A stretch of 64,000 nucleotides of DNA from a virus (Duplodnaviria > Caudoviricetes). The stretch is from positions 68,933 to 132,932 of IMG/VR virus record IMGVR_UViG_3300028048_000071; one strand, given 5' to 3'. The notes beneath the pieces were generated by a model. The model was not told the origin of the DNA. It worked only from the letters and a program-made list of their open reading frames with translations, and ran no database searches. The position numbers and the translations under genes were made by a program. Positions 779-17,803 of this stretch are shown in pieces. The number at the start of each line of letters is the position of its first letter. Within the stretch, counting starts at the first letter, position 1.

Positions 779-783
779 AATAA

Positions 784-2697: not shown

Positions 2698-2709
2698 GGA
2701 GGTTTTAGT

Positions 2710-2973
2710 ATGGAATTAGCTCAAATTATAACTTTAGTAACATTTATCGTTACTTTAATTTTAGGTTTTGTATCAAAAAAATCTAAATTTATTTCAAACA
2801 ATTTAATACCTGTTCAAAATTTATTAATAGGATTAATTGTTGCTGTTGTTGAATGGATTATAACAAAAGACTTTAATACAGCTATCGCCTTAAGTGGTAT
2901 TATGGCTGGTGGAGCTTATGATATAGTTCATAATATACAAAAAATGAAAATAGAAAATAAGGAGGAAAACTAA
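2710..2973 (+). CDS. Holin
   Basis: 87 aa with 2-3 hydrophobic segments and charged C-terminus, upstream of endolysin. Confidence 0.8.
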   Translation: MELAQIITLVTFIVTLILGFVSKKSKFISNNLIPVQNLLIGLIVAVVEWIITKDFNTAIALSGIMAGGAYDIVHNIQKMKIENKEEN

Positions 2974-2975
2974 TT

Positions 2976-3107
2976 ATGATAGATGAAATCAATGAAACTG
3001 TATTAGTTGAACAAGAAGGAGATAAAGCTCCTGAAAGAGATAAAGATTTTGGTCTTTATGATGAAAACGGAGAAATTATAAAAGAAGAAGAAAATACCGA
3101 AGAATAA
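2976..3107 (+). CDS. Small acidic protein (43 aa, not in the ORF track)
   Basis: AAGGAGG SD then [43 protein letters not shown]; fills the holin-endolysin gap. Confidence 0.6.
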
Positions 3108-3120
3108 GGAGGAATGTAAA

Positions 3121-4245
3121 ATGGCAAAAGTATTTGGTATTGACATAAGCACTTGGCAAAGAGGTTATCCTTACGCTGGAGCTACCATAGAAGGAGTTAA
3201 ATTTGCTATTTTAAGAGCTGGTTATAGTCAAACAAAAGACAACCAATTTGAAACTCATTATGCAAATGCAAAAGCTCAAGGTTGGGGCGTTGGAGCATAT
3301 TGGTATATGTATGCTACATCAGTTGCTGGAGCACAAGCAGAAGCAAGAGCATTTTTAAGAGCTATTGCTGGAAAACAATTTGAATATCCTATTTATCTTG
3401 ATATAGAAGATTCGAGCGTTTCAAATAATACATCTAAAGCAACTAGAGATGCAATGATAAGAGCATTTGGAGAAATAATTGAATCTGCAGGATATTATTT
3501 TGGTGTTTATACTAATAAATATTGGTATTCAAGTTTAATTAGTGGTTCTGAATTAAATAAAAAATATGATTGGTGGATTGCTCAATGGTCAACTGGAGCT
3601 CCAACTGGAGTTAATTATGGATTATGGCAATTTGGTGGAGAAACAAATTATCAAAGAAGCAATAAAGTTGCAGGAGTAACTACAGACCAAAACTGGGCTG
3701 TTAAAGATTATCCAGCAATTATGAAACAATTAGGATTAAATGGATTCCCTAAATCAGGAGGAAATACACCTGCACCACAACCAACACCATCAACTAAATC
3801 AGTAGATGAATTAGCACGTGAAGTAATTTCTGGTAAATGGGGTAATGGTTCTGATAGAAAGAATAGATTAACTGCTGCTGGATATGATTATAATGCAGTA
3901 CAAAATAGGGTTAATGAAATTTTAGGAACAGGTTCAGCTCCTGCTAAAAAATCTAATGATGAGATAGCTAATGAGGTTATAGCAGGTAAATGGGGTAATG
4001 GAAATGAAAGAAAAGCTCGTTTAACTGCTGCAGGATATGATTATAATACTATTCAAGGTTTAGTTAATCAAAAACTTAATGGTGGTTCAAGTTCTAATGT
4101 TATAAAATATACTGTAAAATCTGGAGATACATTATCTGGAATTGCAGCAAAATATGGAACTACATATCAAAAAATAGCTGCTGATAATGGAATTGCTAAC
4201 CCTAATAAAATCTATCCAGGACAAGTTTTAACAATAAAAAAGTAA
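3121..4245 (+). CDS. Endolysin: GH25 muramidase + 2 Cpl-7 (CW_7) repeats + LysM
   Basis: GIDISTWQ and YLDIED; twice [20 protein letters not shown]; [13 protein letters not shown]. Confidence 0.95.
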
Positions 4246-4251
4246 TTTTTA

Positions 4252-4285
4252 TAAAGAGATGGCTAAATAAGGTCATCTCTTTAAT
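4252..4285 (+). terminator. Hairpin after endolysin, possible terminator
   Basis: taaagagatggct-aaata-aggtcatctcttta. Confidence 0.5.
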
Positions 4286-4308
4286 AAAGAAAATAAGGAG
4301 GATAATAT

Positions 4309-4674
4309 ATGGCTATTTTAAGAAAGAAAAAAGATAAAAATAAAAAAATAGAAATAGAAAAAGTAGAGATTAAAGAGAATGAAGAAATTAAAGAAGAAAA
4401 GAAAATGTTGGTTGATGATAGCACAACAAATGGAGAAAAAACAAAGGTCGAAGAAATTAAGACAACAGGGGAAGAAGAAATTAAACCTAGAAAAGTATCT
4501 TTAAAGAAAGGTTCAAAAGTTATAGTAAATGGTAGATGTTTTGGGGCATCATCATTAGAATGTCCTTTGAAAACTGTAAGAAATCACGAGACAAAGATAC
4601 TTGATGTAGATAAGGATAATAATTCAATTTTAATAGATGAAGGTTGGATTAGTATAGATAATTTAGTTAAATAA
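4309..4674 (+). CDS. Hypothetical protein
   Basis: ORF with AGGAGG SD. Confidence 0.7.
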   Translation: MAILRKKKDKNKKIEIEKVEIKENEEIKEEKKMLVDDSTTNGEKTKVEEIKTTGEEEIKPRKVSLKKGSKVIVNGRCFGASSLECPLKTVRNHETKILDVDKDNNSILIDEGWISIDNLVK

Positions 4675-4722
4675 AAAAAGGGAGTTTGGTTTTTAATATA
4701 GATTAAGAAAAGGAGGGAAAAT

Positions 4723-5382
4723 ATGGCTAAGCAAACAATAAATAATCTTGAATCTGCGGCAACTGTTAGAAGCAAGATTAATAGTAACTTTACAGAACTA
4801 TATGACCAAAAAGCTGATAAAAATCACGCATATACAGATTCAAGTTATGGTGCTGCATCAAACGAATTATTTGGTCACGTAAAAATAAATGTTGCTAATG
4901 GCTTAAATGTTAGCGATGGTGTAGTAAGTTTAGCTCTTGCAACGACTACCGGTGCTGGTGCGGTGCAATTAGCTGATTCTCTTACTTCAAATGACCCAAC
5001 AAAAGCATTAAGTGCTGCACAAGGGAAAATTTTAAATGATACTTTAACATCGTTAGACGAAAATACTCCTCCAAAAAATCACGCAGTTGACAATGGTGAT
5101 TATGGACTTGCAACAAGTTCTTTATATGGACATTTAAGAGTTACATCTGGAAATGGATTAACTTTAAACGACGGGACTTTATCACTAAATGCCGCAACTA
5201 CAAGTGCTGCCGGTGCAGTACAATTGGAGGATTCATTAGAATCTCAATCTACTACTAAAGCATTAACTGCTAATATGGGATATTATTTGAATAAACATAA
5301 AGCAGAAGCTTTTAGTGGAACAACAGTGCCAAGTAATAATCTTGGTAGTGATGGAGATATATACTTTTTATTAGAAAATTAA
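4723..5382 (+). CDS. Tail fibre protein with duplicated fibre repeat
   Basis: Two copies of NHA...YG.A....GH...ATT..AGAVQL.DSL.S...KAL. Confidence 0.75.
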   Translation: MAKQTINNLESAATVRSKINSNFTELYDQKADKNHAYTDSSYGAASNELFGHVKINVANGLNVSDGVVSLALATTTGAGAVQLADSLTSNDPTKALSAAQGKILNDTLTSLDENTPPKNHAVDNGDYGLATSSLYGHLRVTSGNGLTLNDGTLSLNAATTSAAGAVQLEDSLESQSTTKALTANMGYYLNKHKAEAFSGTTVPSNNLGSDGDIYFLLEN

Positions 5383-5397
5383 GGGGAGGTGTAAAAT

Positions 5398-6318
5398 ATG
5401 GCAGTAATATCAGAATATCCATTACATAACACAGGTCAAGAAGTTCAAACAGCAATTGACGATGCGTTAGATACATTACCTTATCAAATAGGTTTAAAGG
5501 CTAATACGGCGGATGTTTTAACAAAAACAAATACTGATGCTTACACTCCTACGTCTGACTATCATCCAGCAACAAAACTCTACTGCGATACAGTAAGACC
5601 TACTGTAACAATAGGGCAAACAACAACTGGAGCTGAAGGAACTGAAGCTCTTGTTACAAATACAGGAACAGAAAGAGATGCTATACTTAATTTTACAATT
5701 CCAAGAGGAAATACTGGTGATGCTGCAGGATTTGCAACACCAACTGCTGTTGCTAATACTTTAGCACCAGGTTCACAAGCAACCGCATCTGTAGTTGCTA
5801 GTGGTGCTGCAACAAGTAAGTTATTTGAATTTACTTTTGGTATTCCACAAGGTATTCAAGGTATTCAAGGTATTCAAGGATTTTATGTAGATAATATAGT
5901 AAAAACATCTGGAACTGGAGCTGCTGGAACAGTAGACACTTATACAATGTATTTAAACGATGAGAATGAAACAGTTGCCGGAACATTTAATGTTTATAAT
6001 GGGGCTGATGGTCAAGGTGCTGGTACCGTTACAAGTATTGGAATAACCAATTCAGACAATTCATTATTAATAACTGGTTCACCAATTACTTCAAATGGTA
6101 ATATAGCTGTTGAGCATACTAATTCTATAACAGCACAAAGTAATTTAGCTGTTCGTGCATTATCTTTTGATGCAAGTGGACATATAACTGGATATAGTAC
6201 AGTTGAAGAAACAGGTTTGATGTTTAAAAATGTATATGATACCGATGATAATGGAATAGTTGATGGAGCAGAATCCTTACACGATGAAGATAGCCAAATA
6301 TGGTTTGAATTATCATAA
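5398..6318 (+). CDS. Tail fibre protein with short collagen-like stretch
   Basis: LNFTIPRG, FTFGIPQGIQGIQGIQG (caaggtatt tandem at about 5848-5880). Confidence 0.7.
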   Translation: MAVISEYPLHNTGQEVQTAIDDALDTLPYQIGLKANTADVLTKTNTDAYTPTSDYHPATKLYCDTVRPTVTIGQTTTGAEGTEALVTNTGTERDAILNFTIPRGNTGDAAGFATPTAVANTLAPGSQATASVVASGAATSKLFEFTFGIPQGIQGIQGIQGFYVDNIVKTSGTGAAGTVDTYTMYLNDENETVAGTFNVYNGADGQGAGTVTSIGITNSDNSLLITGSPITSNGNIAVEHTNSITAQSNLAVRALSFDASGHITGYSTVEETGLMFKNVYDTDDNGIVDGAESLHDEDSQIWFELS

Positions 6319-6334
6319 TAGAAGGTGAAATTTA

Positions 6335-7447
6335 ATGGCAAGTACGTCTGGAACTTTATGGAATGAATCGGTAATAGTACCTAATAAATGGTCTGGAGGA
6401 CAATTAGTTACTCCAGAAGTTAAATCTACTGCAACTTATCAATGTGAAAGAAACGGTAGTCAATTAAAAATAAAAATAGATACATCAAATCATTGTACCA
6501 GTAGGGGTGCATATTGGGACTGGAGATGGGCTTTCTCAGTTTCAGTAAATGGAGTTGATATAGCTTCAAATATTCAAATAAAGCCTAGAACTTATTTAAA
6601 TACAATTGGTACTAGAGTATTTAGTGCTTCTACAGGATGGGCTACTGTTAATATAGGTTCAGCAAATTCTGTAGTTGTGTCTGTTAGATATTATGACACT
6701 CAAGCCTATAATAATTCTATAGAGAGACATTCTATGGGAGGAGGTTCTCTTACTTTAGGGAATATACCTCAATTACCAAGCGTATCAATAAGTCAAAATA
6801 GTAAAACTCATAATTCAATTAGAGTAAATTACTCTACAAGTGGTTCTTATGACTATGTAAGAATCTTTTTAAATAATAATAAATATGGAGATTTTACAGG
6901 GAGTCCTGTAACAATTTCAAATTTAAGTCCTAATACAACATATAAAATATTTGCAAAGGCACACGGTAATGGGGGTTTTGGTGGTCAAAGTAATACTCTT
7001 ACTATAAAAACATATTTAACGCCTTCAACTGTAAGTTCTAATAAAATAGAAAATTTAGAGCCTTTTAGTTGTTCAGCATCTATGACTTCTAGTAATGCAA
7101 ATAATACAAGTAAATATGAATTTGCTTTGTGTGATATAAATAAAAATGTTGTTCAGGGAGCATATCAAACAAATAATTCTTATTATAATTTTACTGGAAT
7201 GCAAGAAGAAACTTCATACTACATAAGATATAGAGTTCAATCAAAAGATTCTGGTTCTTGGTCTAATTATGTCTATAGTCCATTATTTAAAACTCCAGCC
7301 GACCAAGTTAGAGCTTGGGGTAAAATAAATGGTTCTTGGAATAAAGGTAAAGTTTTCTTAAAGAAAGATGGACAATGGGTTAAGGCAAAGAAGGCTTATG
7401 TAAAAATAAATGGAGAATGGATTTTATCAATTAATAAATATGATTAG
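6335..7447 (+). CDS. Fibronectin type III domain virion protein
   Basis: TISNLSPNTTYKIFAKA and ETSYYIRYRVQ...WS FN3-like motifs; C-terminal VKINGEW repeats. Confidence 0.7.
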   Translation: MASTSGTLWNESVIVPNKWSGGQLVTPEVKSTATYQCERNGSQLKIKIDTSNHCTSRGAYWDWRWAFSVSVNGVDIASNIQIKPRTYLNTIGTRVFSASTGWATVNIGSANSVVVSVRYYDTQAYNNSIERHSMGGGSLTLGNIPQLPSVSISQNSKTHNSIRVNYSTSGSYDYVRIFLNNNKYGDFTGSPVTISNLSPNTTYKIFAKAHGNGGFGGQSNTLTIKTYLTPSTVSSNKIENLEPFSCSASMTSSNANNTSKYEFALCDINKNVVQGAYQTNNSYYNFTGMQEETSYYIRYRVQSKDSGSWSNYVYSPLFKTPADQVRAWGKINGSWNKGKVFLKKDGQWVKAKKAYVKINGEWILSINKYD

Positions 7448-7462
7448 AAAGGGGGAAAATGA

Positions 7463-7792
7463 ATGAATAGTAAAAGATTTAGAAAAAATTTTTCTATATT
7501 TAAAGGGACAAATAAAAATATTGAAATTTTATTTGCTTTTGGAAAATATTGTCCTTATGAATTATCAGAAGGCGATAAATTAATTTTGACGGTTCTTGAT
7601 TATAGAAACAATGATGAAATAGTAATTCAAAAAGAAGTTACTGGTGATAATATTTTTTCATTTATTCCCTCTGATACTGAAGAACTAGACGTAGGATTTT
7701 ATAGATATAATGTTAAATTTATACCAGAAGACACAGAAGATATTTATGAAGTTATTGCACCTAGCACATTTCATATAGAGGCGGGTGAATAA
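7463..7792 (+). CDS. Putative baseplate/fibre adaptor protein
   Basis: PSDTEELDVGFYRYNV resembles BppU-N-like adaptors; tail context. Confidence 0.5.
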   Translation: MNSKRFRKNFSIFKGTNKNIEILFAFGKYCPYELSEGDKLILTVLDYRNNDEIVIQKEVTGDNIFSFIPSDTEELDVGFYRYNVKFIPEDTEDIYEVIAPSTFHIEAGE

Positions 7793-7794
7793 TA

Positions 7795-8202
7795 ATGGAT
7801 GAAAGAACAATATGGGAAGATTTAGGAAAAACAAATCCAAGTATAGAATCTGAAGTTATTGAAGTAGGGAATATTAGTGATGTTGAAATAAGATGTCCAA
7901 GACCAAATGTTTCAGATAATTATAATAAATTAACTAATAAACCAAAAATTAACGGTGTTACTTTAGAAGGAAATAAGACAGCGGAAGATTTAGGAATAGA
8001 TGTTGCTGATTTAAATTATGTTCACAATCAAACCGAAGCTTCTGATGAATGGGTTATAGTTCATAATCTAAATAAATATCCTGCTGTTTCAATAATAGAT
8101 AGTGCTGGAGACGAGGTTGAAGGTAATGTTCACTATGACACATTAAATCAAGTAACAATAACTTTTATAGGTTCTTTTAAAGGAACCGCAACATTAAATT
8201 AA
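7795..8202 (+). CDS. Tail fibre-associated protein
   Basis: YNKLTNKPKINGVTLEGNKT and WVIVHNLNKYPAVSIID motifs. Confidence 0.6.
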   Translation: MDERTIWEDLGKTNPSIESEVIEVGNISDVEIRCPRPNVSDNYNKLTNKPKINGVTLEGNKTAEDLGIDVADLNYVHNQTEASDEWVIVHNLNKYPAVSIIDSAGDEVEGNVHYDTLNQVTITFIGSFKGTATLN

Positions 8203-8222
8203 AACGAAAGGGGTAATATAAT

Positions 8223-9716
8223 ATGGCAAAAAGTTTTTTAGTTGATATTAACTTAAACAAAAATGAATTGCAAAATGCTATTGTTCAAAATTTAGCAACT
8301 AACCCAAGCAATCCAAAGCCAGGTCAAGTATATTTTAATACTACAACAAATAGATTTAGAGTATATACTGGAACTGAATGGGATGAAATGGGTACTGGTG
8401 GTGGAACAGTAACTAGCGTTGATGCTGCTAATACAGATGGGTCATTAACTATTTCTGGTAATCCAATTACTTCATCTGGAACAATAACTGTTGACCACAC
8501 AAATACAATTAGTGCCGTTACAACTTCTGGAATATATCCAATAAAAGTTGATGCAAACGGACATATCACTGAGACTGGAACTGCTTTAGGTAATGTTTCA
8601 ACTACTGCGGCAGGTTTACTTCCAGCATTTAGTTCTGCAAACCAATCATCTACAGCTGTAGCAACAAATGATTATGTTTGGGATGCAACTACAAATAAAT
8701 ATTCAAAATTACCAGCAAACGCATTTAAAGATACTACTTATACAGATGGAACTGCTGGTTATACTTTAAAAGCAAAACAAGATAGTGAAGGAAATCAAAT
8801 TAATACAACTTATGCACCATTAGCAAGTCCAGCATTTACTGGAACTCCAACTGCACCAAAAGCAACTGCTGGTGATAGTAGCGACCAAATCGCAACTACA
8901 TCATTTGTTAGTGAGGCTTTAGGGGCTGTATCTGGTGCAATGCACTTTAAAGGTACTGTTGGTACTGGTGGAACTGCCGGAACTTCTTTACCAACTAGCG
9001 GAGTAACTATTGGAGACACATATAAAGTTGTAACTAAAGGAACTTATGCTGGTCAAGCTGCTGGTGTAGGAGACTTATTTATAGCAACTGCTACTACTCC
9101 AACTTGGGCTTATGTACCATCTGGAGATGACGCTGCTGTAACAAGTATTACTGCTGGTACTGGTTTAACTGGTGGAACAATAACTACTACTGGTACTATT
9201 GCTTTAGCTACAAGTGGTGTTTCTGCTGGTACATATCAAGGTATAACTGTTGATACTTATGGTAGAGTAACATCTGCTCAAGATATGGGTTATACAACAA
9301 ACGAAGGTACTGTAACTTCAGTAGGAATAACTGCGGGTAGCGGTATTTCTGTATCTGGTAGTCCAATAACTACAAGTGGTTCTATTACAGTAGGACATAC
9401 AAATTCAATAACTGCACAATCTACATCTGGAGTATATCCAATCAAAATAGATGCAAATGGACATATCACAGAATATGGTAGTGCTGTAACTATTTTAAAG
9501 AAATATGCTGCTACTATAACAGGAGATGCAAGTAAAACAAGTTTTACTATAACTCATAATTTAGGAAGCAGAGATGTAACAGTTCAAGTATATGATGGTA
9601 CAAGCTATGAAGAAGTAATTGTTGATGTAACAAGAACTAGTACTTCAGTTGTAACTATCGGATTCGCTAGTGCACCTGCAACAGGAGCTACTTATAGAGT
9701 TGTAGTAATCGGCTAA
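8223..9716 (+). CDS. Tail fibre protein
   Basis: Thr/Gly-rich; APLASPAFTGTPTAP; repeated GTVTSV...PIT.SG.I.V.HTN; ITHNLG C-terminus. Confidence 0.8.
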   Translation: MAKSFLVDINLNKNELQNAIVQNLATNPSNPKPGQVYFNTTTNRFRVYTGTEWDEMGTGGGTVTSVDAANTDGSLTISGNPITSSGTITVDHTNTISAVTTSGIYPIKVDANGHITETGTALGNVSTTAAGLLPAFSSANQSSTAVATNDYVWDATTNKYSKLPANAFKDTTYTDGTAGYTLKAKQDSEGNQINTTYAPLASPAFTGTPTAPKATAGDSSDQIATTSFVSEALGAVSGAMHFKGTVGTGGTAGTSLPTSGVTIGDTYKVVTKGTYAGQAAGVGDLFIATATTPTWAYVPSGDDAAVTSITAGTGLTGGTITTTGTIALATSGVSAGTYQGITVDTYGRVTSAQDMGYTTNEGTVTSVGITAGSGISVSGSPITTSGSITVGHTNSITAQSTSGVYPIKIDANGHITEYGSAVTILKKYAATITGDASKTSFTITHNLGSRDVTVQVYDGTSYEEVIVDVTRTSTSVVTIGFASAPATGATYRVVVIG

Positions 9717-9732
9717 TTAAGGAGGTGGCTAA

Positions 9733-10836
9733 ATGCAACTATTAAGTACATTAAATAGTCTTGATAATGTTGCTGATGGTTCTACAAGAAAGCTTCTTAA
9801 AACCGCCACTTCAAGCGGTTCTGGGAATGCAGTAACCGCAGTTAGCATATCAGGCGACACTTTAACTTATACATTAGGTTCATCGTTTTCATTGAGTAAT
9901 CATACTCACGATGCAGCCACAACGTCTGCAGCTGGTTTTTTATCAGCCGCAGACAAAAAGAAATTAGATGCAACTTCAGGTTATTATGGAACTTGTAGTA
10001 CAGCAAAAGGGACTGCCGCAAAAGTTGTTGATTGTAGTAATTATGTTTTAGCAACTGGTGCAGTTATTTATGTCAAATTTACCAACGCCAATGAGTATAA
10101 TGGTACTGCGACATTAAATGTTAATGGTACTGGAGCAAAAGATATTGCTAGAGTAGGTACAACAAAAACAACCAGATATTATTGGAGTGCAGGAGAAGTA
10201 GTCGGTTTTGTATATGATGGTACAAATTATATAATAATTGAAAGAGGAACTGCCTCAACTACTTATTATGGTGTTACAAAATTAATAACAACCGCAACAA
10301 ATACATCTGAGGCTTTGGCGTTAACTCCAAAAGCATTAAATAATTTTGCACAAAATATGATTGCTAATTATGCAGTATATTCATCTTCTTCTACCTATAA
10401 TGTAGGAGATAGAGTTAGATATAGTTATAATACATATGAATGTATAGTGGCTATTTCAACAGCAGAAGCGTGGACTGCAGCTCATTGGAAGGCTTTAGAC
10501 CCTTTACAAACACAGATAGATGAAAAATCTGAGGTTTCTATAAGTAGGAATTTAACTTCTGGAGAAAAAATAGGTACTATAACTATAGATGGAACAGCAA
10601 CTGATTTATATGCTCCTGCTACAGGTAGTGTTAATACGTCTTTGGCTAGTCCACAACAAACATATTATTTAACAGGAGTTCAAACAACTGCTGCTGGGCA
10701 AGGTAATTTATATAATAGTTATTTGTCTAGTACATATACAGGAATAAAATATGTAACTTCTACTTCTCAAGAAGGTGGAAGTTTATATGTAGACGACAGA
10801 GAAGTCGTTACAGGATTATATTATGAAATTTCATAA
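9733..10836 (+). CDS. Tail fibre protein
   Basis: ATLNVNGTGAK, YDGTNY and a CBM5/12-like YNVGDRV motif. Confidence 0.75.
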   Translation: MQLLSTLNSLDNVADGSTRKLLKTATSSGSGNAVTAVSISGDTLTYTLGSSFSLSNHTHDAATTSAAGFLSAADKKKLDATSGYYGTCSTAKGTAAKVVDCSNYVLATGAVIYVKFTNANEYNGTATLNVNGTGAKDIARVGTTKTTRYYWSAGEVVGFVYDGTNYIIIERGTASTTYYGVTKLITTATNTSEALALTPKALNNFAQNMIANYAVYSSSSTYNVGDRVRYSYNTYECIVAISTAEAWTAAHWKALDPLQTQIDEKSEVSISRNLTSGEKIGTITIDGTATDLYAPATGSVNTSLASPQQTYYLTGVQTTAAGQGNLYNSYLSSTYTGIKYVTSTSQEGGSLYVDDREVVTGLYYEIS

Positions 10837-10860
10837 AATAAAAGAAAGGAGAGATAATTA

Positions 10861-13095
10861 ATGGCTACAGTTAAGTTTTATAATGATAAAGAAAAAACTC
10901 AACAAGTATATCCAGAAATTGACCCAGATGGAAATTATCCTGGTGTCACAGTTGGACTTGCCAATAACCTTGTTTCACCAGACGGTATAAATGATATAGA
11001 TACTTGGCAATATCGTTCAACTGGTGGAGAACTTGATATTACTGATGGATATGCAACATTAAAGAAACTTATTGGTACAACTGAATCTTCAACTATAGAA
11101 GAAAGTCTAACACATAACTTAATTACAACTGGTGTAACTTCTGTAACTGTTGATACAAGTACATTTAAAAGTCAAATAAGTACAAGTGGAACATATAATT
11201 TTATATATACTCCAACAATTACTTATTCATCTGCTTTAGTATATTCATTAAATAAAAGCACTTTTGCTAATTATGTAAGTCAAGCAACTGGAACATATAC
11301 ATTTACTTATACTGCTGTTGTTTCACCAGTAGATACATCTAGTGTTATACAAACTTTTACACAATCAACATTTGTTAACAAAGTAAATGAAACACCAGAT
11401 ACTTATACATTTACATATAATGGTTCAAATTGGCAATTAGATGGAACAAACGTAACAATGAGTCAATATGGTATTACAACAAAAGGAACTGAAACAAGTG
11501 GAACAACAATTACTGTTTATTATACAAGTAATTCTTGGTATTACAATAATGCCTCAATTTCTATGAGTAATTATGGTATTTCAACAACTGGCTCTGAATC
11601 TGTTGGAGACACAATTGCTATATCTTATACATCTAATGACTGGATGTTAAATAACACTGCAATAACACTTGCTGATTACGGAATTGTAATTACAGGAGGA
11701 ACTGCAGCAATTGACGATAATATTCAAATAATATTTATTGCTGAACAAGTAGGTGTAATTCAAACTGCAAATCCAACTGGATTATATAGTGTTGGAATGA
11801 ACCAATTTAATAAAGATGGTTCTCAAATATTTAGAAATTATACATTAAATTCATCTGGTGGAATAAGTGCGGCAACTGGATATTATGTAATTTATTTTAA
11901 ATGTATAGGAGGAGAAACTTATACTATTTATAATGAAACACCTTCATCTACTGTTAGAGTTGGTTATAGTGCAACTATCCCAACTACATCAAGCACTGTT
12001 ACATTATTAAGTACAGTTTCATCATCTGAATGGGCTGATGTTCTAGTTAATGACTCATATAAATCACACTATTATCCAAATAATCCTGGATATTTAGTTG
12101 TTGCGACAAGTGACATTGAAAATTTATGTTGTCATTTAACTTGGGAAGCAGTAAAGGATGATGTATATGAATCTTATTTTAATTATACATTACCTATTCC
12201 ATACACTGATAAAAATGGAGATGTAATAACAACTTATGGTTTAGTAAACTTAGATGATGGTACTCAATATTATGATGAAATAAATTTTGAAGACCTTAAA
12301 TGGTATAAGAGAACAACTAGAATTGAATATAGTGCTGAAAACTTGGCAACTGTTCAAGCATTAGGTGTTCCATATTTATATGATGCAAATTGGATTTATT
12401 ATGGTGTTAATACAGTTGAATATAACTTAGAAGACGTTTCTTATTCATATGAAATATCAAACTATGGTACTGAAGAGTTTATTAACTCTGCATTGCCATT
12501 AACTGCAACAATATTCTATCAAGAAAACTTAAGAGATAAAATAAGATTCTCTATGGAAGTTATTGATAATAAAGTTGAGAAAATTGATAGTGCTTCTACT
12601 TATACAAAATATTCAAGTGCAAAAGCATCTTATAACCTAGATAAAGCATTAAGACATATACTTGGTCTTGATGTAGATACATTCTCAACAAGCAGCACTT
12701 ATGCTGTTGGTGATTATGTTGTATACGATGGTAAATTGTGGAAATGTACCACTGCCGTAACAAGTGCAGGAGCTTGGACTGGTAATGGATTATCTGTTAG
12801 AAGTAATAATAATGGAATATTACTTGATATGGACACAACTAAATTTTTAAAATTCTTAGATTCAGATAGACCTGGAAGTCCTTGTGGAATTCCTGAACTT
12901 TATGCAAATGATGGCGGTACATACCAAATTCATTTAACATATGCAACAACATCAAACGATTATCACTTCGCTAATGCTGCTGAATTAGAAGAACAAACTG
13001 GTCTTGTAGTAAGTAGTGCAACTGGTGGAGTATCATTTAGTTATAATAGTTCTTCTGCAAATTGGGAAGAATCATATTTATTTAAAGCAAATTAA
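10861..13095 (+). CDS. Large tail/receptor-binding protein
   Basis: 744 aa, Thr/Ser/Tyr-rich internal repeats; YAVGDYVVYDGKLWKC (CBM5/12-like). Confidence 0.7.
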   Translation: MATVKFYNDKEKTQQVYPEIDPDGNYPGVTVGLANNLVSPDGINDIDTWQYRSTGGELDITDGYATLKKLIGTTESSTIEESLTHNLITTGVTSVTVDTSTFKSQISTSGTYNFIYTPTITYSSALVYSLNKSTFANYVSQATGTYTFTYTAVVSPVDTSSVIQTFTQSTFVNKVNETPDTYTFTYNGSNWQLDGTNVTMSQYGITTKGTETSGTTITVYYTSNSWYYNNASISMSNYGISTTGSESVGDTIAISYTSNDWMLNNTAITLADYGIVITGGTAAIDDNIQIIFIAEQVGVIQTANPTGLYSVGMNQFNKDGSQIFRNYTLNSSGGISAATGYYVIYFKCIGGETYTIYNETPSSTVRVGYSATIPTTSSTVTLLSTVSSSEWADVLVNDSYKSHYYPNNPGYLVVATSDIENLCCHLTWEAVKDDVYESYFNYTLPIPYTDKNGDVITTYGLVNLDDGTQYYDEINFEDLKWYKRTTRIEYSAENLATVQALGVPYLYDANWIYYGVNTVEYNLEDVSYSYEISNYGTEEFINSALPLTATIFYQENLRDKIRFSMEVIDNKVEKIDSASTYTKYSSAKASYNLDKALRHILGLDVDTFSTSSTYAVGDYVVYDGKLWKCTTAVTSAGAWTGNGLSVRSNNNGILLDMDTTKFLKFLDSDRPGSPCGIPELYANDGGTYQIHLTYATTSNDYHFANAAELEEQTGLVVSSATGGVSFSYNSSSANWEESYLFKAN

Positions 13096-13117
13096 TGAAT
13101 GAAAGGAGAATAATTTT

Positions 13118-13279
13118 ATGTTAGAAATAATTAAATCATTCTTCTCCCCTGTAGGGGGGGGCGAACAAGCTTCGCTTCACAGAATGGAAATATACAAAGG
13201 AAGGAGGATTTGCGTCAAGAGTATAGTAACTCTTCAAGCAATTCCGACTTCAATAGAAAGAGAGGTGAAGAGTATCTAA
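13118..13279 (+). CDS. Leader peptide 1 (53 aa in the present G8 state); phase-variable
   Basis: AAAGGAG SD at 13102, ATG 13118, MLEIIKSFFSPVGGGEQ...VKSI, TAA 13277; crosses the G8 tract. Confidence 0.8.
   Translation: MLEIIKSFFSPVGGGEQASLHRMEIYKGRRICVKSIVTLQAIPTSIEREVKSI
13154..13161 (+). repeat. Poly-G tract 1 (G8)
   Basis: G homopolymer in an AT-rich genome, inside the leader ORF. Confidence 0.95.
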
Positions 13280-13359
13280 AATCTTCTTATGGAAGATTTG
13301 CAGATGGAAGCAACGCTTCTGTCTTAATCTCTTCATCTTTCGCAAGTGAAAATATCGTA

Positions 13360-13368
13360 GGGGGGGGG
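13360..13368 (+). repeat. Poly-G tract 2 (G9)
   Basis: Direct reading. Confidence 0.95.
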
Positions 13369-13494
13369 CAGCTACGCTCGAATAATTATTCAGCAAGCAG
13401 TCGCTCTTATAAAGGAGGTGAAGGCAATTACGCTAGCTTAATGTCTAGTGATTTTGCCGGAACCGAGACAATGTTAAACCCTGACCGCATAGTC

Positions 13495-13503
13495 GGGGGG
13501 GGG
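13495..13503 (+). repeat. Poly-G tract 3 (G9)
   Basis: Direct reading. Confidence 0.95.
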
Positions 13504-13650
13504 CGAAATCCATTTGGATTCGTCTTCAAAGAAAGGGGGCAAGCCACTATTTAGACTTGCCTCTTATACACGAAATGATTTCTCTTTCAAGAAGGGAGGT
13601 GCAGGCTTAACAGTCTGTACTCCTTTTTATTATGAAGGAGGTGTGTGTTA

Positions 13651-14034
13651 ATGCAAATTAATAAAGACCTTATTATTAGTGGAACTAATATGACTTTAGG
13701 CGATACAGCCTATAAAGATATATATTCAACAACTGAAACCAAGACTAATAAGGTTTGGATTGATGGTCGTACTATATATAGAAAGGTTATTACTGGAAAT
13801 TTATCTCAGGCACAATGGAATCACGGAATAACTTTTGATACTATTGTTTCTATAGAAGGTGTTTTTATAAATACTAATTCTGGTAATACATTTAATATAC
13901 CTAGTACAAGACCTGATTTTCCTGATTATCAAGTTGGTGTATTTGTGAATAATACATTTATAACTTTAGAACGTGCTACTGGTGCTCAACGTGCGGATAT
14001 GAGTTTTTATGTAGTTTTAGAATATGTGAAATAA
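13651..14034 (+). CDS. Variable fibre-tip/receptor-binding cassette 1
   Basis: MQINKDL start; YSTTETKTNKVWIDGRTIYRK fibre C-terminal motif. Confidence 0.75.
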   Translation: MQINKDLIISGTNMTLGDTAYKDIYSTTETKTNKVWIDGRTIYRKVITGNLSQAQWNHGITFDTIVSIEGVFINTNSGNTFNIPSTRPDFPDYQVGVFVNNTFITLERATGAQRADMSFYVVLEYVK

Positions 14035-14063
14035 CACACACAACAGGCTAACAGCCTAACATT

Positions 14064-14471
14064 ATGGCTAAATTTACAATTAATAAAGACTTCTTTGTAG
14101 GTGATACAAATTATTCTTTAGAGGATATTCCTTTTGGAGTAGAACCCGAAGTCCCATCTAATCAAAATTATTTTAAATTTGGGAATATGATGATTTGTTG
14201 GGGTTGGAGAAACGTAACTTTAAACTGGAATGGGAATGGAGCTTATGCTGATTTTAATTTAGCAAACGATGGAACTCCATATAAAGATACTGCATATAGA
14301 ATTGTTGGGAGTTATGCTGGAAGCACAGCTTATTATGCAGGAAACTGGTGCTGGTTTGAAAGCAAAGGGACGACAAGTGCAAGAGTAAATTGCTGGTGTG
14401 AACAAGCTAATAAACCAACATCTATTATTATAGGTTTTATAGCCATTGGAAGATGGCGTGATGCTGAATAA
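14064..14471 (+). CDS. Cassette 2 (gp53-like fibre C-terminal domain)
   Basis: MAKFTINKDF start; YFKFGNMMICWG...FIAIGRW. Confidence 0.75.
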   Translation: MAKFTINKDFFVGDTNYSLEDIPFGVEPEVPSNQNYFKFGNMMICWGWRNVTLNWNGNGAYADFNLANDGTPYKDTAYRIVGSYAGSTAYYAGNWCWFESKGTTSARVNCWCEQANKPTSIIIGFIAIGRWRDAE

Positions 14472-14507
14472 AAACATTTCGTGATGAGCAAGCCTTTTGG
14501 CGAACTT

Positions 14508-14918
14508 ATGAAGATTAATAAAGATTTAATCGTAGAGGGTACAAATCATACATTAGAAGATATACCTTTTGATATTGATTTATCTGATGTGTATTCTACA
14601 AATGAAACAAAAACAAATAAGGTTTGGATAGATAACAGACCTATATATAGAAGAGTCGTTACCGGTACAGTTACCGCTGCAGGTCAAGGACAAACTGTAA
14701 CCACTATAAGTAATATAAGACAAATCTTGACTATAAGAGGAGTTATGTATTCTAATTATGGTCAATGGTGGAATATTCCTAATTATCACGGAGAAGCAGG
14801 ATATGTAAATTCCATATACTGCGATGCAAATGGAAGAGTCAATTTAGGAGTTGGGAACTTTTATAGTGCCGGTAAACCTTTTATAATTATTTTAGAGTAT
14901 ACAAAATCTACTGACTAA
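14508..14918 (+). CDS. Cassette 3 (paralogue of cassette 1)
   Basis: MKINKDL start chosen by paralogy; YSTNETKTNKVWIDNRPIYRR...LEYTK. Confidence 0.75.
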   Translation: MKINKDLIVEGTNHTLEDIPFDIDLSDVYSTNETKTNKVWIDNRPIYRRVVTGTVTAAGQGQTVTTISNIRQILTIRGVMYSNYGQWWNIPNYHGEAGYVNSIYCDANGRVNLGVGNFYSAGKPFIIILEYTKSTD

Positions 14919-14954
14919 CATTGTCTGAACGGCAAAAAAAATAATGCCGATTCT

Positions 14955-15377
14955 ATGAAAATAAACAAAGACTTAATTATTAGTGATACAAATTATACTT
15001 TAGGAGATGTTGCTGATTTTATATCAAATAAAATAGAAATTAAAGAGCTTGCTTCTACAACAGGAAGTGGCGAAAACATTACAATAGATTTGACCGATAG
15101 TTATAAAAATTATGACTTTTTATTAGTTCAATGGAGTCCATATTCTTTATATGGGAATATTGATTTTTATATTATAGATACTGCTACAATTTTATCTACA
15201 CAATATGGAAATTATCCTTATGAAACCGGACACCTTCAAACAACATCAGTATGGTCAAATGTCGTATTTGGCTTTTCATCAACAACTAGATTTATAGCTA
15301 AATGTGCAAATACAGGAACTTGGGGAAAAGGTTCTTTTAAAATAATTTCTATTAAAGGAATAAAATTACCTCACTAA
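14955..15377 (+). CDS. Cassette 4
   Basis: MKINKDL start; IDLTDSYKNYDFL...IKGIK. Confidence 0.7.
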   Translation: MKINKDLIISDTNYTLGDVADFISNKIEIKELASTTGSGENITIDLTDSYKNYDFLLVQWSPYSLYGNIDFYIIDTATILSTQYGNYPYETGHLQTTSVWSNVVFGFSSTTRFIAKCANTGTWGKGSFKIISIKGIKLPH

Positions 15378-15422
15378 TCACATAATAGAGCGACCGCTCG
15401 TAAATGAGCAAAAGCGAATTAA

Positions 15423-15800
15423 ATGATTATAAACACAGATTTAATCTACCCTATCGGTAGTATATATTTAAGCGTCAACGCAACCAATCCGTCAAAGTAT
15501 TTTGGCGGAGCTTGGGAGCAAATTACATCAGACGCATATTTAAAGATAGTAACTCAAAATGCTGGTTCTTTAGGTGGAACCAGTGTAGACCACAAGATAC
15601 CTATTGAAAGTATGCCTAGTCACGACCACGGTGTGTACGGAGCATTAACTGGAGAAAATAAACCTATTACCAATACTGGTAATGATTGGGGAGTTAATAC
15701 AACACACGGATGGACTACAAATGCCATTTCAAAGACTGGCGGTGGACAGGCTTACTATCCTTATTACTATGGCGTTTATGTTTGGAAAAGAACTGCTTAA
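15423..15800 (+). CDS. Cassette 5 (YPxGSIY...WKRTA family)
   Basis: YPIGSIYLSVNATNPS...MPSHDH...VYVWKRTA. Confidence 0.8.
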   Translation: MIINTDLIYPIGSIYLSVNATNPSKYFGGAWEQITSDAYLKIVTQNAGSLGGTSVDHKIPIESMPSHDHGVYGALTGENKPITNTGNDWGVNTTHGWTTNAISKTGGGQAYYPYYYGVYVWKRTA

Positions 15801-15843
15801 ATATACTCTCTTATGATGTTTTGAAGATTTAGATACAAATCTT

Positions 15844-16233
15844 ATGATTATAAATACAAATATGTTGTTAGCAGCCTATCCTGTAGGTTCGCTATATTTA
15901 ACAACAAATGAAATAAACCCAGGAACCTTATTTGGTGGAACCTGGGAAAAATTGACTGGGGATGCTTATCTTAAAATAGTGACAAGTAATCCTGGTCAAT
16001 ATGATGGTACGTCAGACCAACATAAAATACCTATCAATAGTATGCCTTCTCACAGACACGGTAATAGAGTTACTTTAAATATGTCTCAAGGTGCTGGTCA
16101 AGATAGAAGCCTTGTAGTTGGTGGAGGTCAAGTATGGAATACTGCGGACAATTATCAAAATCAATTTGTTGGTGGTGGACAACCTTATTATCCATATTAT
16201 TATGGTATTTATGTTTGGAGACGTACAGCATAA
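15844..16233 (+). CDS. Cassette 6 (YPxGS...WRRTA family); predicted ON in this genotype
   Basis: YPVGSLYL...MPSHRH...IYVWRRTA. Confidence 0.8.
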   Translation: MIINTNMLLAAYPVGSLYLTTNEINPGTLFGGTWEKLTGDAYLKIVTSNPGQYDGTSDQHKIPINSMPSHRHGNRVTLNMSQGAGQDRSLVVGGGQVWNTADNYQNQFVGGGQPYYPYYYGIYVWRRTA

Positions 16234-16261
16234 TCGGAATTGCTTAATGCAATAAAACTTT

Positions 16262-16435
16262 ATGAAAAATATTTTATTAAATAAAATCCTTCACATCGGG
16301 GGGGGGCAGAAATGTCTGCTCTTCACAAGAAAGGAGGGTTGGCTATTATTTTGTAACGTCAACTCTTCAAGGAATGGAGGTGGCAGACATTTAATATCTG
16401 CTATCTCTTGTGGAGGTGTAATCTTATGCAAATAA
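16262..16435 (+). CDS. Leader peptide 2 (57 aa in the present G9 state); phase-variable
   Basis: ATG 16262, MKNILLNKILHIGGGQK..., TAA 16433 overlapping the start of cassette 7; no SD of its own. Confidence 0.75.
   Translation: MKNILLNKILHIGGGQKCLLFTRKEGWLLFCNVNSSRNGGGRHLISAISCGGVILCK
16298..16306 (+). repeat. Poly-G tract 4 (G9)
   Basis: Direct reading. Confidence 0.95.
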
Positions 16436-16818
16436 ACGTAGATTTAATATATCCTATAGGTTCTTTATATTTAACAACGTCTACTGTATCACCAGCAGTT
16501 TTGTTTGGTGGTACTTGGGAACGCATTAAAGGTAGATGTATTGTAGGTGTAGACGAAAATGACACCGACTTTAATACTGTTAGTAAAACCGGCGGTGAAA
16601 AAACACATACATTGACTGTGGATGAAATGCCAGCACACAATCACAATATTCAAGGTGCGATGAATGGTGCTTCTGGAAGTAGTTGGTGTGTTGCTTTAAA
16701 TAGTGATAGAAGCGTAAACTGGTCTATCACTAATGGGTCACAAAATAAAGGTGGTGGACAAGCACATAACAATCTACAACCTTATTACACTGCTTATATA
16801 TGGCGAAGAACCGCATAA
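16426..16818 (+). CDS. Cassette 7
   Basis: GGAGG SD, MQINVDLIYPIGSLY...WRRTA. Confidence 0.8.
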   Translation: MQINVDLIYPIGSLYLTTSTVSPAVLFGGTWERIKGRCIVGVDENDTDFNTVSKTGGEKTHTLTVDEMPAHNHNIQGAMNGASGSSWCVALNSDRSVNWSITNGSQNKGGGQAHNNLQPYYTAYIWRRTA

Positions 16819-16849
16819 GATTACTTAGATATTAAATTGTCGAATAATT

Positions 16850-17227
16850 ATGAAAATAAACTTAGATTTTATATATCCTGTTGGAAGTATTTATATGAGT
16901 GTTAATGCTACAAATCCAGGAATTTTATTTGGAGGAACTTGGACTCAATTAAAAGATAGGTTCTTACTTGGTGCTGGAAATACATATTCCGCTGGAGATA
17001 CTGGTGGAGAGGCAACTCATACGTTAACTTATAATGAAATGCCTCAACATAGTCACACATTGTATAATGAAAATGCAAGTGGATGGACTTTAAGTAAAGC
17101 ATCTTTAAAAACAGGAACAAATAAAGGATATTCTGGTAATATCCAAATTGGAGATGCTGGAGGTAATCAAGCACATAATAATATGCCTCCATATCTAGTA
17201 GTCTATATGTGGAAAAGAACTGCATAA
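16850..17227 (+). CDS. Cassette 8
   Basis: MKINLDFIYPVGSIY...PPYLVVYMWKRTA. Confidence 0.8.
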   Translation: MKINLDFIYPVGSIYMSVNATNPGILFGGTWTQLKDRFLLGAGNTYSAGDTGGEATHTLTYNEMPQHSHTLYNENASGWTLSKASLKTGTNKGYSGNIQIGDAGGNQAHNNMPPYLVVYMWKRTA

Positions 17228-17273
17228 ATTATTTTGACAAAAAGAGTTGACACTAAAATAATAGTGTTATAAT

Positions 17274-17702
17274 ATGAAAATAAATGAAGATTTAATAATT
17301 AATGGAACGGATTTAAATTTAAATGATATAGTACAAAAAATATCGGCACTTGAAAAATATCAAGTAGAATATAATGCTGATTCAATTACTTTGACATTTA
17401 CAAATAAATATCCTTGTATAGCAATTACATATATGTCTCACGCAGGATGGGGATTTGGAGGAAATGAATGGATTTGGAATGCTGATTTAACTAATTCTGT
17501 TCATTTAGGTTATACTAAAGCCTATGTTAATGGTAATGACTTATTATCAAGATTTATGAGTTCTGTGTCAATTAACTATTGTCCAACTGCGGGAGTAGAA
17601 CATACAACTGTAAGAACTACAACCAAGGGTAACTCTGGTAATAGCAATGGACAATCAGTATGTGTTATTTGTTTACCATTAATAACTAATTCAAAAGAAT
17701 AA
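17274..17702 (+). CDS. Cassette 9
   Basis: MKINEDL start; unrelated C-terminal domain. Confidence 0.7.
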   Translation: MKINEDLIINGTDLNLNDIVQKISALEKYQVEYNADSITLTFTNKYPCIAITYMSHAGWGFGGNEWIWNADLTNSVHLGYTKAYVNGNDLLSRFMSSVSINYCPTAGVEHTTVRTTTKGNSGNSNGQSVCVICLPLITNSKE

Positions 17703-17723
17703 TTATAAGAAATAGAGTAAAAT

Positions 17724-17769
17724 GAAAGGGGAATAACTTAACTAAAATTTTTGTTATTTCCTTTTTTTT
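17724..17769 (+). terminator. Intrinsic terminator closing the tail operon
   Basis: aaggggaataac...gttatttccttt followed by a T run. Confidence 0.7.
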
Positions 17770-17774
17770 ACCGC

Positions 17775-17803
17775 TTGACATTATCTTCTTTTTGTGCTAT
17801 AAT
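17775..17803 (+). promoter_or_regulatory. SigmaA-type promoter
   Basis: TTGACA-N17-TATAAT with extended TG. Confidence 0.85.

Follow-up and report, generated by a model that had tools for sequence, protein, structure and literature searches.

Hairpins enclosing frame-specific stop codons in phage leader ORFs as candidate gates of a heritable translational selector

Behind its tail-fibre trunk gene and the leader that directly follows it, a large phage carries nine small tip cassettes (c1 to c9), among which only c1 and c7 have a Shine-Dalgarno (SD) sequence. The locus raises the question of how the remaining cassettes could be translated, and what the hairpins in the leaders ahead of them may do. 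The window (the whole stretch of 64,000 nucleotides analyzed here) is part of a single 132.9-kb contig with 28.5% GC. Because the contig encodes a GH25/CW_7/LysM endolysin, a DNA polymerase III alpha-type enzyme, and a primase-helicase, because its fibre proteins show faint similarity to streptococcal phage fibres, and because one relative was binned with a Clostridia genome, the source is a large phage of a Gram-positive host. Its genes have strong SDs (median anti-SD duplex, -8.5 kcal/mol), whereas the cassettes that have a complement in a leader, here called addressed cassettes, scored 0 to -3; in the window, leader 2 and the cassettes other than c1 and c7 scored 0 to -2.5.

Leader 1 (~530 nt) is followed by six tip cassettes of ~130 amino acids, a shorter leader 2, and three further cassettes, and all cassettes lie on the + strand in the same orientation. 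The c5 to c8 products match Gp10_C, which elsewhere is the C-terminal end of longer tail proteins; c1 to c4 and c9 showed no family match at threshold. Runs of at least seven G or C occur in the whole 132.9-kb genome only as the four tracts of the leaders. A megablast search of the locus against deposited phages gave no match, and Rfam at a permissive E value gave no relevant family. The locus has the following features:

10861..13095, + strand: tail-fibre trunk gene (744 amino acids, CBM_5_12 domain), with homologues in the related contigs L001-L016
13118..13653, + strand: leader 1, with ATG at 13118, its own SD (13103-13108), three G tracts, and six SD-hairpin-stop modules
13154..13161, + strand: G tract 1, G8 in the window and G9 or G11 in relatives
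13360..13368, + strand: G tract 2, G9, which doubles as an SD-like element ahead of the stop at 13383
13495..13503, + strand: G tract 3, G9 in the window and G8 or G11 in relatives
13651..16233, + strand: tip cassettes c1 to c6, with ATGs at 13651, 14064, 14508, 14955, 15423, and 15844
14032-14063, 14469-14507, 14916-14954, 15375-15422, and 15798-15843, + strand: spacers before c2 to c6, the putative address partners
16231..16435, + strand: leader 2, with an SD-less ATG at 16262, a G9 tract (16298-16306), and two stop modules
16231-16261, + strand: leader 2 spacer, predicted to pair with the first module of leader 1
16426..17702, + strand: tip cassettes c7 (own SD), c8, and c9 (both without SD)
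16816-16849 and 17225-17273, + strand: spacers ahead of c8 and c9, the putative address partners of leader 2

The leader ORF probably encodes a peptide with no function of its own. The peptide matched no Pfam family, and its identity between lineages was only 31%, anchored on residues that derive from the G tracts and SD motifs; a functional leader protein was rejected on these grounds. Programmed bypassing of the T4 gene 60 type was also rejected, since the cassettes have their own ATG and a conserved N-terminal peptide, and the poor conservation of the leader peptides speaks against a fused polypeptide. Promoters belonging to the cassettes themselves were considered and dismissed: the spacer hits at 17234-17262 and 17247-17275 (c9) and at 15821-15848 (c6) were isolated and too near the ATG, and the remaining spacers contained no consistent promoter. 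The only perfect promoter was found after the array, at 17775-17803.

Frame-specific stop codons in the two leaders

In both leaders, a tract of G8 or G9 lies 12 codons into the translated frame, and its repeat unit is not a multiple of three. We simulated the loss of one base, no change, or the gain of one base at every tract and recorded the first stop codon reached. Leader 1 had frame-specific stops at 13224, 13277, 13383, 13439, 13552, and 13608, in addition to the TAATG junction at c1; leader 2 had stops at 16354 and 16392 and a further stop just inside c7. The stop codons that the first-pass annotation had placed in hairpins thus turned out to be the first stops met after a one-base change of a G tract. 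The window genome state itself (G8/9/9) stops at 13277, in the module for c6. Where the frame stays open, leader 1 ends at TAATG (13649-13653) on c1, with the stop at 13649-13651 and the ATG at 13651, and leader 2 reads to a stop at 16433, just beyond the c7 ATG at 16426. Such stop-start overlap was seen for the read-on outputs only, and relatives were alike in this respect.

The number of outcomes was regular. Across seven contigs, exactly seven termination sites were found per three-tract leader and three per one-tract leader, and each of the two wrong frames after a repeat met one stop codon. In the window, the seven outcomes correspond to c1 to c6 plus leader 2, and the three outcomes correspond to c7 to c9. 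The outcome count equaled the target count in the window, L001, L004 (seven cassettes for seven outcomes), L009 (3 + 3 outcomes, the targets being five cassettes plus a second leader), and L019 (arranged like L009), and L017 was the exception, with five outcomes and four cassettes. The read-on path was one open frame of 142 to 185 codons ending on c1 (L004, L001, and L006), which is improbable in AT-rich sequence unless the path is kept open by selection.

The repeats of the relatives differ in kind. They comprise (CAAT)8, (ATAC)14-15, (AAGC)8, (ATCA)13, and (AC)9. In L009, whose fibre is 55% identical and in which TGA is read as Trp, the first poly-G is replaced by (CAAT)8, and two SD-hairpin-stop modules and their addresses are retained. 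A scan with the tip domain found L017 with (ATCA)13 and (AC)9, L018 with (ATAC)14, and L019 with (AAGC)8 and (ATAC)15; in each of the three, two SD hairpins come after every repeat, their loops containing or bordering the frame-specific stop, and a stop-start junction leads onto the first cassette. The pattern of a stop at the loop of a hairpin held for 9 of the 10 modules of these three contigs, and cognate complements were found where examined, by an exact-match search that is noisy in AT-rich DNA. To judge from these sequences, the common denominator is a repeat with a unit not divisible by three, not poly-G as such. A constant distance from the leader ATG to the tract was rejected, with about 2, 8, 14, and 22 codons in relatives against 12 in both window leaders.

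Tract lengths varied within lineages, with the reservation that homopolymer lengths in metagenome contigs may carry assembly error: lineage A had 8/9/9, 9/9/8, and 9/9/11, and tract 3 of lineage B was 8, 8, 9, or 10, the tracts being the only indels in ~458 nt among four leaders. The states differ in their outcome, L002 and L011 (9/8/8) and L003 (9/8/10) stopping in modules other than that of the window.

Predicted hairpins and SD-like elements at the stops

The sequence alone had suggested that the leader stops sit in local hairpins. All of the hairpins and pairings then claimed were present, and each folded alone, with energies of -4.3 (13217-13234), -13.0 (13423-13458), -10.9 (13536-13563), and -17.6 kcal/mol (13592-13626); the leader 2 hairpins gave -14.1 (16334-16367) and -15.9 kcal/mol (16376-16408). 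The listed hairpins all recurred in both the minimum free energy (MFE) and centroid structures of 13096-13660. Hairpins that start at a G tract and close on a CUUC-type strand were in the leader MFE, and 13262-13272 paired with 13329-13339 over 11 bp including G.U pairs. The predicted modules are as follows:

13200..13251, + strand: module for leader 2; SD 13200-13208 paired with 13237-13251
13217-13234, + strand: inner hairpin of the module for leader 2; loop stop TAG 13224-13226 (the 12-bp address of the module follows at 13236-13247)
13260..13365, + strand: module for c6; the SD strand 13260-13272 pairs with 13329-13341, and the stop is TAA 13277-13279
13272-13286 and 13349-13365, + strand: addresses of the c6 module
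13361..13408, + strand: module for c5; hairpin from G tract 2 to 13408, TAA 13383-13385 at an inner loop, and address 13393-13407
13414..13476, + strand: module for c4; SD 13414-13418, and hairpin 13423-13458 with loop stop TAA 13439-13441
13452-13459 (inside the hairpin) and 13466-13476 (free, 11 bp), + strand: addresses of the c4 module
13532..13577, + strand: module for c3; G-rich SD-like element 13532-13540, hairpin 13534-13565, loop stop TAG 13552-13554, and address 13569-13577
13592..13650, + strand: module for c2; SD 13594-13599 within hairpin 13592-13626, and loop stop TAA 13608-13610
13641-13650, + strand: address of the c2 module, which doubles as the SD-to-ATG spacer of c1
16333-16368, + strand: hairpin of the leader 2 module for c9, stop 16354-16356
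16376-16408, + strand: hairpin of the leader 2 module for c8, stop 16392-16394

All structures described here are thermodynamic predictions, based on sequence and on the comparison of ten metagenome contigs. The MFE of 13096-13660 was -197.2 kcal/mol, in comparison with -145.9 +/- 6.2 for 100 shuffled sequences (z = -8.2). The reverse complement reached only -145.1 kcal/mol; because the antisense strand folds 52 kcal/mol worse than the sense strand, the structure belongs to the sense RNA and not to the DNA. Many stem pairs are G.U, which is consistent with the sense-strand advantage. In addition, seven module hairpins from three lineages shared 12 pairs, 6 of them with compensatory changes. 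Paired cells made up 90.5% of the seven-module alignment, against 54 to 64% when the partners were slid, and its covariation score exceeded that of all 500 shuffles (500/500). The stems also change as stems: the first module of L006 has exchanged its inner hairpin for an unrelated stem that still holds TAA in its loop, in L016, the stem of the c6 module is changed on both strands, and in L001 and L006, the c6 module is without a 50-nt insert and forms a plain hairpin with the stop in its loop. In this comparison, the window, L001, L006, and L016 do not count as independent cases. The folding and covariation results support the view that the hairpins are real, conserved, sense-strand RNA structures.

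The position of the stops within these structures was examined in the leaders of three independent lineages (window, L004, and L009), where hairpin loops hold only 10 to 17% of the bases. An MFE hairpin loop held at least 2 nt of the triplet in 15 of 18 frame-specific stops but in only 6 of the 62 remaining stop triplets (Fisher P = 5e-9). When the stop was kept unpaired, the hairpin around it had a median energy of -18.9 kcal/mol, in comparison with -2.0 for 400 genomic TAA/TAG triplets (P = 6e-13) and with -6.3 for a set of 31 further stops from these leaders (P = 2e-6). Among the exceptions, a long composite hairpin has its 5' strand immediately ahead of 13277, and 16354 is located at a stem edge; in relatives, the stops at L001 5990 and L016 5873 had no enclosing hairpin.

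The paired strands include SD-like elements. An anti-SD duplex of -10 kcal/mol or better was found 6 to 20 nt upstream of 15 of the 18 stops, and only 2.7% of genome positions reach even -9 kcal/mol; in the first module after tracts 2 and 3, the SD-like site is the G tract itself. The spacing from SD to stop is the normal spacing from SD to start, as at the c1 TAATG junction. Because a strong SD stands 6 to 20 nt before the stop, each module resembles a gene start in which a stop codon replaces the start codon. No start codon follows the module SDs, and the matched cassettes, themselves without an SD, lie 0.4 to 3 kb away. The strand that pairs with the SD is of the CUUC type. The proposal that the hairpins hide the SD was borne out, with a mean unpaired probability of the SD core of 0.33 or below in 16 of 18 modules.

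Long-range addresses and candidate roles of the hairpins

We compared each module with the spacers of three phages, using nonoverlapping module boundaries. The cognate spacer was the best of 18 for 17 of the 18 modules; the mean cognate duplex energy was -23.5 kcal/mol against -11.0 +/- 4.0, and none of 100,000 permutations was as good. The order of the addresses is nested, the first module matching the farthest target, and each module-spacer repeat pair has a unique sequence. Some addresses are palindromic and so occur as direct as well as inverted repeats. A cognate duplex consists of two to five helices; its spacer side runs from 0 to 14 nt after the stop of the preceding cassette and ends 1 to 10 nt ahead of the AUG. 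In most modules, its leader side begins at the SD or within a few nucleotides of it, and the terminal pairs are weak G.U pairs. The stop splits the address: its 5' portion pairs beside the AUG, and the strongest helix is found on the 3' side. Pairing on both sides of the stop was found in 17 of 18 modules, and an uninterrupted helix of 8 to 14 bp wholly 3' of the stop was found in 15, to which the window c6 module adds a 17-bp helix in the full-transcript fold. In an unconstrained fold of the 4.2-kb transcript, five of the helices recurred; it contained those of c3, c4, c5, and c6 as well as the c7 mask. The module-spacer comparisons used module-level models; cofolding the whole leader with each spacer gave multisegment solutions that are uninterpretable.

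These observations suggest a mechanism in which a heritable translational selector uses the hairpins as its gates, a reading to which we give slightly better than even chances. Slippage at a repeat would set the frame of the ribosome in the leader ORF. In each hairpin, the 5' strand is an orphan SD-like element (GGAGG or a G tract) and the 3' strand a CUUC-type anti-SD mimic, and the module-specific complement of one spacer extends around the hairpin and beyond it. Modules that are not translated would stay folded, with the SD concealed, and in modules that are read through, ribosomes would sweep both strands and the address, so that nothing stable forms. A ribosome terminating in the loop would melt the SD strand and leave the address helix 3' of the stop untouched; that module alone would swap its local stem for the module-spacer duplex. 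The duplex would set the freed SD beside the cassette AUG, forming a ribosome-binding site that is split across a long RNA loop, and the addressed cassette would then be translated; in this scheme, both the ribosome-driven switching and the initiation or reinitiation are inferred. Activation could mean refolding and then binding of a new 30S subunit, or transfer of the posttermination ribosome over the helix. If the frame stays open, c1 and c7 would be reached by ordinary stop-start overlap, and leader 2 would itself be one output of leader 1.

The first-pass annotation had held that the local hairpin is the default OFF state, hiding the SD or the selector strand, and that only a ribosome terminating in the loop opens its module. 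For the SD, the concealment was consistent; for the selector, it was partial, with 6 to 26 of the 20 to 35 duplex bases also paired locally and a free stretch of 4 to 11 nt kept in the address of 15 of 18 modules. In the model, most modules dock onto the spacer through a helix outside the hairpin even in the absence of a ribosome, and the hairpin thus hides the SD more consistently than the selector. The folding check proposed there, with a ribosome footprint at each stop, was run at the module level with two strands, forcing positions -15 to +11 around the stop open. Pairing with the spacer increased in 4 of 18 modules (window c4 from 11 to 19 bp, window c5 from 2 to 11 bp, L004 c7, and L009 c2), decreased in three, and was unchanged in the others. 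The OFF state, with two local hairpins, a spacer hairpin included, was nearly iso-energetic with the extended module-spacer duplex of the ON state, before the entropy cost of a 0.4- to 3-kb loop. In these models, the near equality fits a switch and proves none, and a partly free address next to a local fold resembles a toehold design. Altogether, the model of an OFF hairpin opened by a ribosome fits the anatomy and is only partly supported by the modelling. Further points count against it: the terminating ribosome itself covers the SD and loop, so that activation must follow its departure, when the local stem should refold fastest; and the geometry is uneven, the G tract being the only SD in the first module after tracts 2 and 3 and the gap between duplex end and AUG ranging from 1 to 10 nt.

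Other roles for the hairpins have to be weighed against the gate model. The resting state could be the long-range duplex, or a docked four-way junction, that buries the AUG region, the local hairpin being mainly the fold adopted before the spacer is transcribed; since the stop lies in mid-module, a terminating ribosome would melt only the AUG-proximal half, leaving the 3' anchor helix intact, and the posttermination ribosome, held by the SD 6 to 20 nt behind the stop, would restart on the tethered AUG. We regard this as unlikely, although it would account for the split pairing in 17 of 18 cognate duplexes (5' part beside the AUG, strongest helix 3'), for docking helices that form without opening, for the equality of SD-to-stop and SD-to-start spacing, and for the long-range helices in the full-length MFE. 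Compared with the long-range segments that they match, the local stems are both longer and better, and they have G.U pairs and compensatory changes of their own, which argues for selection on the hairpin itself, and we know of no precedent for the handing over of a ribosome across an RNA junction, as this explanation demands. The hairpins could also do no more than silence orphan SDs and G tracts, which might otherwise cause spurious initiation, pausing, or trapping, with the stop in the loop for compactness and the cassette chosen by nuclease protection of downstream RNA or by premature transcription termination. No other property of the hairpins is as uniform as SD masking, hairpin 13598-13621 precedes a T run and has a terminator-like score, and pil1, the only proven relative, acts on a terminator. 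A T run follows just one of the eight window modules, and silencing leaves unexplained both why orphan SDs stand 6 to 20 nt before each frame-specific stop and why every module matches a single SD-less cassette through a complement of its own; we consider this explanation improbable.

Two further readings place the repeats outside RNA regulation. Palindromes and inverted repeats might act in DNA, as sites of cassette rearrangement by inversion, deletion, or gene conversion or as structures that modulate slippage at the tracts; the switching of tail fibres by DNA inversion is classic (Mu, P1, and shufflons), and the palindromic addresses would suit it. An inversion switch or shufflon was rejected, as the cassettes are all on the + strand and face one way, the repeat pairs differ in sequence and so offer no single recombinase site, and many stem pairs are G.U pairs that work on one strand only, the antisense being 52 kcal/mol worse. 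Inversion between module and spacer would moreover not join an SD to a cassette, and no rearranged relatives were present among nine contigs, so that a role in DNA is very improbable. That AT-rich loops in a GC-richer stretch merely happen to hold TAA or TAG has a negligible probability: stop triplets are common in AT-rich loops, as the 6 of 62 nonfunctional stops found there illustrate, but chance was refuted by the enrichment tests, by the covariation, and by the return of the pattern in six lineages that differ in sequence and repeat type.

Relation to known systems and implications

The nearest proven parallel is pil1/pil3 phase variation in Streptococcus gallolyticus, where melting of a terminator hairpin by ribosomes depends on a repeat within the leader ORF (Danne et al. 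2014, PMC3894217). As in pil1, a simple-sequence repeat in a leader-peptide ORF sets the reach of the ribosome and the position of leader termination relative to the hairpin; opening of the hairpin is proposed here to switch genes on, and the state is likewise proposed to be heritable and stochastic. The pil1 hairpin terminates transcription and controls a single ON/OFF output immediately behind it, whereas the hairpins described here mask orphan SDs; every repeat has two gates, a leader has as many as seven outputs, and the targets, at distances of up to 3 kb, would be found by long-range complementarity. A stem followed by a U run was seen only at 13598-13621; the other seven window modules have no T run. 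Slippery tracts are carried by other phages as well: receptor-binding genes of Campylobacter phages have hypermutable poly-G tracts (Sorensen et al. 2021, as cited in PMC12823448 and PMC10877375), and slippage is used at contingency loci of T-even phages (Gomez et al. 2025, bioRxiv 10.1101/2025.10.21.683753). The present tracts are similar in being phage-borne and in their link to heritable diversity of host recognition. Those tracts lie inside a protein gene and turn it on or off, whereas the tracts here lie in a leader without evident protein function and would select among cassettes.

The gate has a counterpart in translational attenuation. In the ermC and cat leaders, a drug-stalled ribosome opens a hairpin that sequesters an SD. 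The likeness is that a ribosome positioned in the leader ORF is proposed to open an SD hairpin; the difference is that stalling in ermC and cat is induced by a drug and the SD stands beside its own start, whereas here the position is given by a frame-specific stop, and the sequestered SDs are followed by no start codon. For the split ribosome-binding site, T4 genes 38 and 25 provide a small-scale example, in which a structure between SD and AUG brings both to working distance (review, PMC3014915). That structure is a local hairpin of ~15 to 20 nt, whereas the loop proposed here would span 0.4 to 3 kb with whole genes, and the helix would be conditional. Long-range RNA pairing and translational coupling also operate in MS2. 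Long-distance RNA pairing with translational coupling is likewise described for Qbeta (PMC2978339). Translation of one cistron opening a long-range structure that controls the initiation of another is what is proposed here too, but the coupling in MS2 and Qbeta is single and fixed, with no repeat-driven choice, addresses, or orphan SDs.

The outcome may be compared with that of inversion systems. The Mu G segment, the P1 C segment, and shufflons use site-specific inversion by a recombinase, with cassettes in both orientations. They share with the present proposal the heritable choice of one of several fibre tips; none of their features (recombinase, inversion, or both orientations) is present here. 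In none of the compared systems do gated orphan SDs occur together with two gates at every repeat, long-range addresses that are each unique, and banks in cascade.

Seen alone, the hairpin gate is one more variant of translational attenuation; what is new is the addressed multioutput layout, which occurs in at least six phage lineages with five repeat types, and no description of an addressed one-of-N layout was found in the literature. Tentatively, and with chances that we put slightly under even, the locus could be an addressable one-of-N translational multiplexer, in which repeat length is a heritable base-3 digit that chooses the leader stop, and an SD (possibly with the posttermination ribosome) is handed over a sequence-specific long-range helix to a single gene that lacks an SD and may be as distant as 3 kb. 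Leader 2 counts among the outputs of leader 1, which would allow such banks to be cascaded. The SD would then be supplied in trans along the same mRNA, with RNA addresses routing initiation.

If the model holds, it would represent a new principle in bacterial gene expression, in which repeat length, by way of a short leader with gated orphan ribosome-binding sites and RNA addresses, selects one of up to nine cistrons without a recombinase, a transcription factor, or an altered gene order. It would take the split ribosome-binding site beyond a 20-nt hairpin, to loops of kilobase size, and would offer a compact, programmable routing device for synthetic operons. For the phages themselves, it would explain how those of gut Firmicutes hedge their bets over host receptors through a single-base change.

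Architecture of the leader modules

A typical leader module combines a Shine-Dalgarno (SD)-like element, a hairpin, a frame-specific stop and an address complementary to the spacer of one SD-less tip cassette. A T run lies 3' of the hairpin in the final module of leader 1 (13598-13630), and this element was predicted by score to be an intrinsic terminator. The hairpin could have an additional role, attenuating transcription before cassette 1. The module of cassette 6 contained an insert of approximately 50 nt with two extra hairpins (13280-13328), and the corresponding modules of the related contigs L001 and L006 were found without it, each consisting of a simple SD hairpin whose loop holds the stop.

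The frame-specific stop overlapped an ATG, as TAATG, at 13439-13443 in the window and at 12987-12991 in the related contig L004. The ATG in the window returns to the read-on frame, the open leader path that ends on cassette 1, towards G tract 3, and that in L004 opens a short frame which is closed by the stop of the next module. By chance, roughly one overlap of this kind would be expected in 18 modules.

Pairing at the SD-bearing cassettes and the array ends

In the two SD-bearing cassettes of the window, the spacer between the SD and the ATG was complementary to the cassette's own stop-codon region. The match was a perfect 10 bp in cassette 1 (13641-13650 with 14032-14041) and a perfect 12 bp in cassette 7 (16418-16429 with 16813-16824). 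The cassette 1 helix also constitutes the address of cassette 2, and the spacer and own stop were arranged likewise in the related contig L009.

Folding of the full-length transcript paired the beginning of leader 1, with its ATG region (13114-13143), to the beginning of cassette 9 and its spacer (17215-17279); this predicted pairing would close the entire array as one domain. Directly 3' of cassette 9, two hairpins were followed by a TG-extended promoter that matches TTGACA-17-TATAAT perfectly (17719-17803); together they probably mark where the late fibre operon ends and the next unit begins.

Genetic code and outcome count in the relatives

L009, which is identical in contig to L012, carried in-frame TGA codons inside its tip cassettes (12537-14923). 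These cassettes are intact only with code 4, in which TGA encodes Trp, and the stops in use in the leader modules of L009 were TAA or TAG only. The tip cassettes of L017, another related contig, needed no recoding for intact frames. The sole plus-strand frame there that required TGA as Trp (4592-4744) may correspond to the 3' end of the fibre.

In L017, two repeats gave five termination outcomes, compared with only four tip cassettes downstream (4770-6849). A possible explanation is that one module is vestigial or is addressed to some unrecognised target.

Peptide motifs of the tips and the trunk

Most tip cassettes, in the window (13651-17702) and its relatives, shared an M-x-I-N-x-D-L/F peptide at their start across several unrelated folds. 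The peptide follows four extra residues in cassette 2 and has N-M in its last two positions in cassette 6. The fibre trunk ended in a conserved ESYLF motif. Together, the shared start and the ESYLF end may provide a plug-and-socket joint common to the interchangeable tips.
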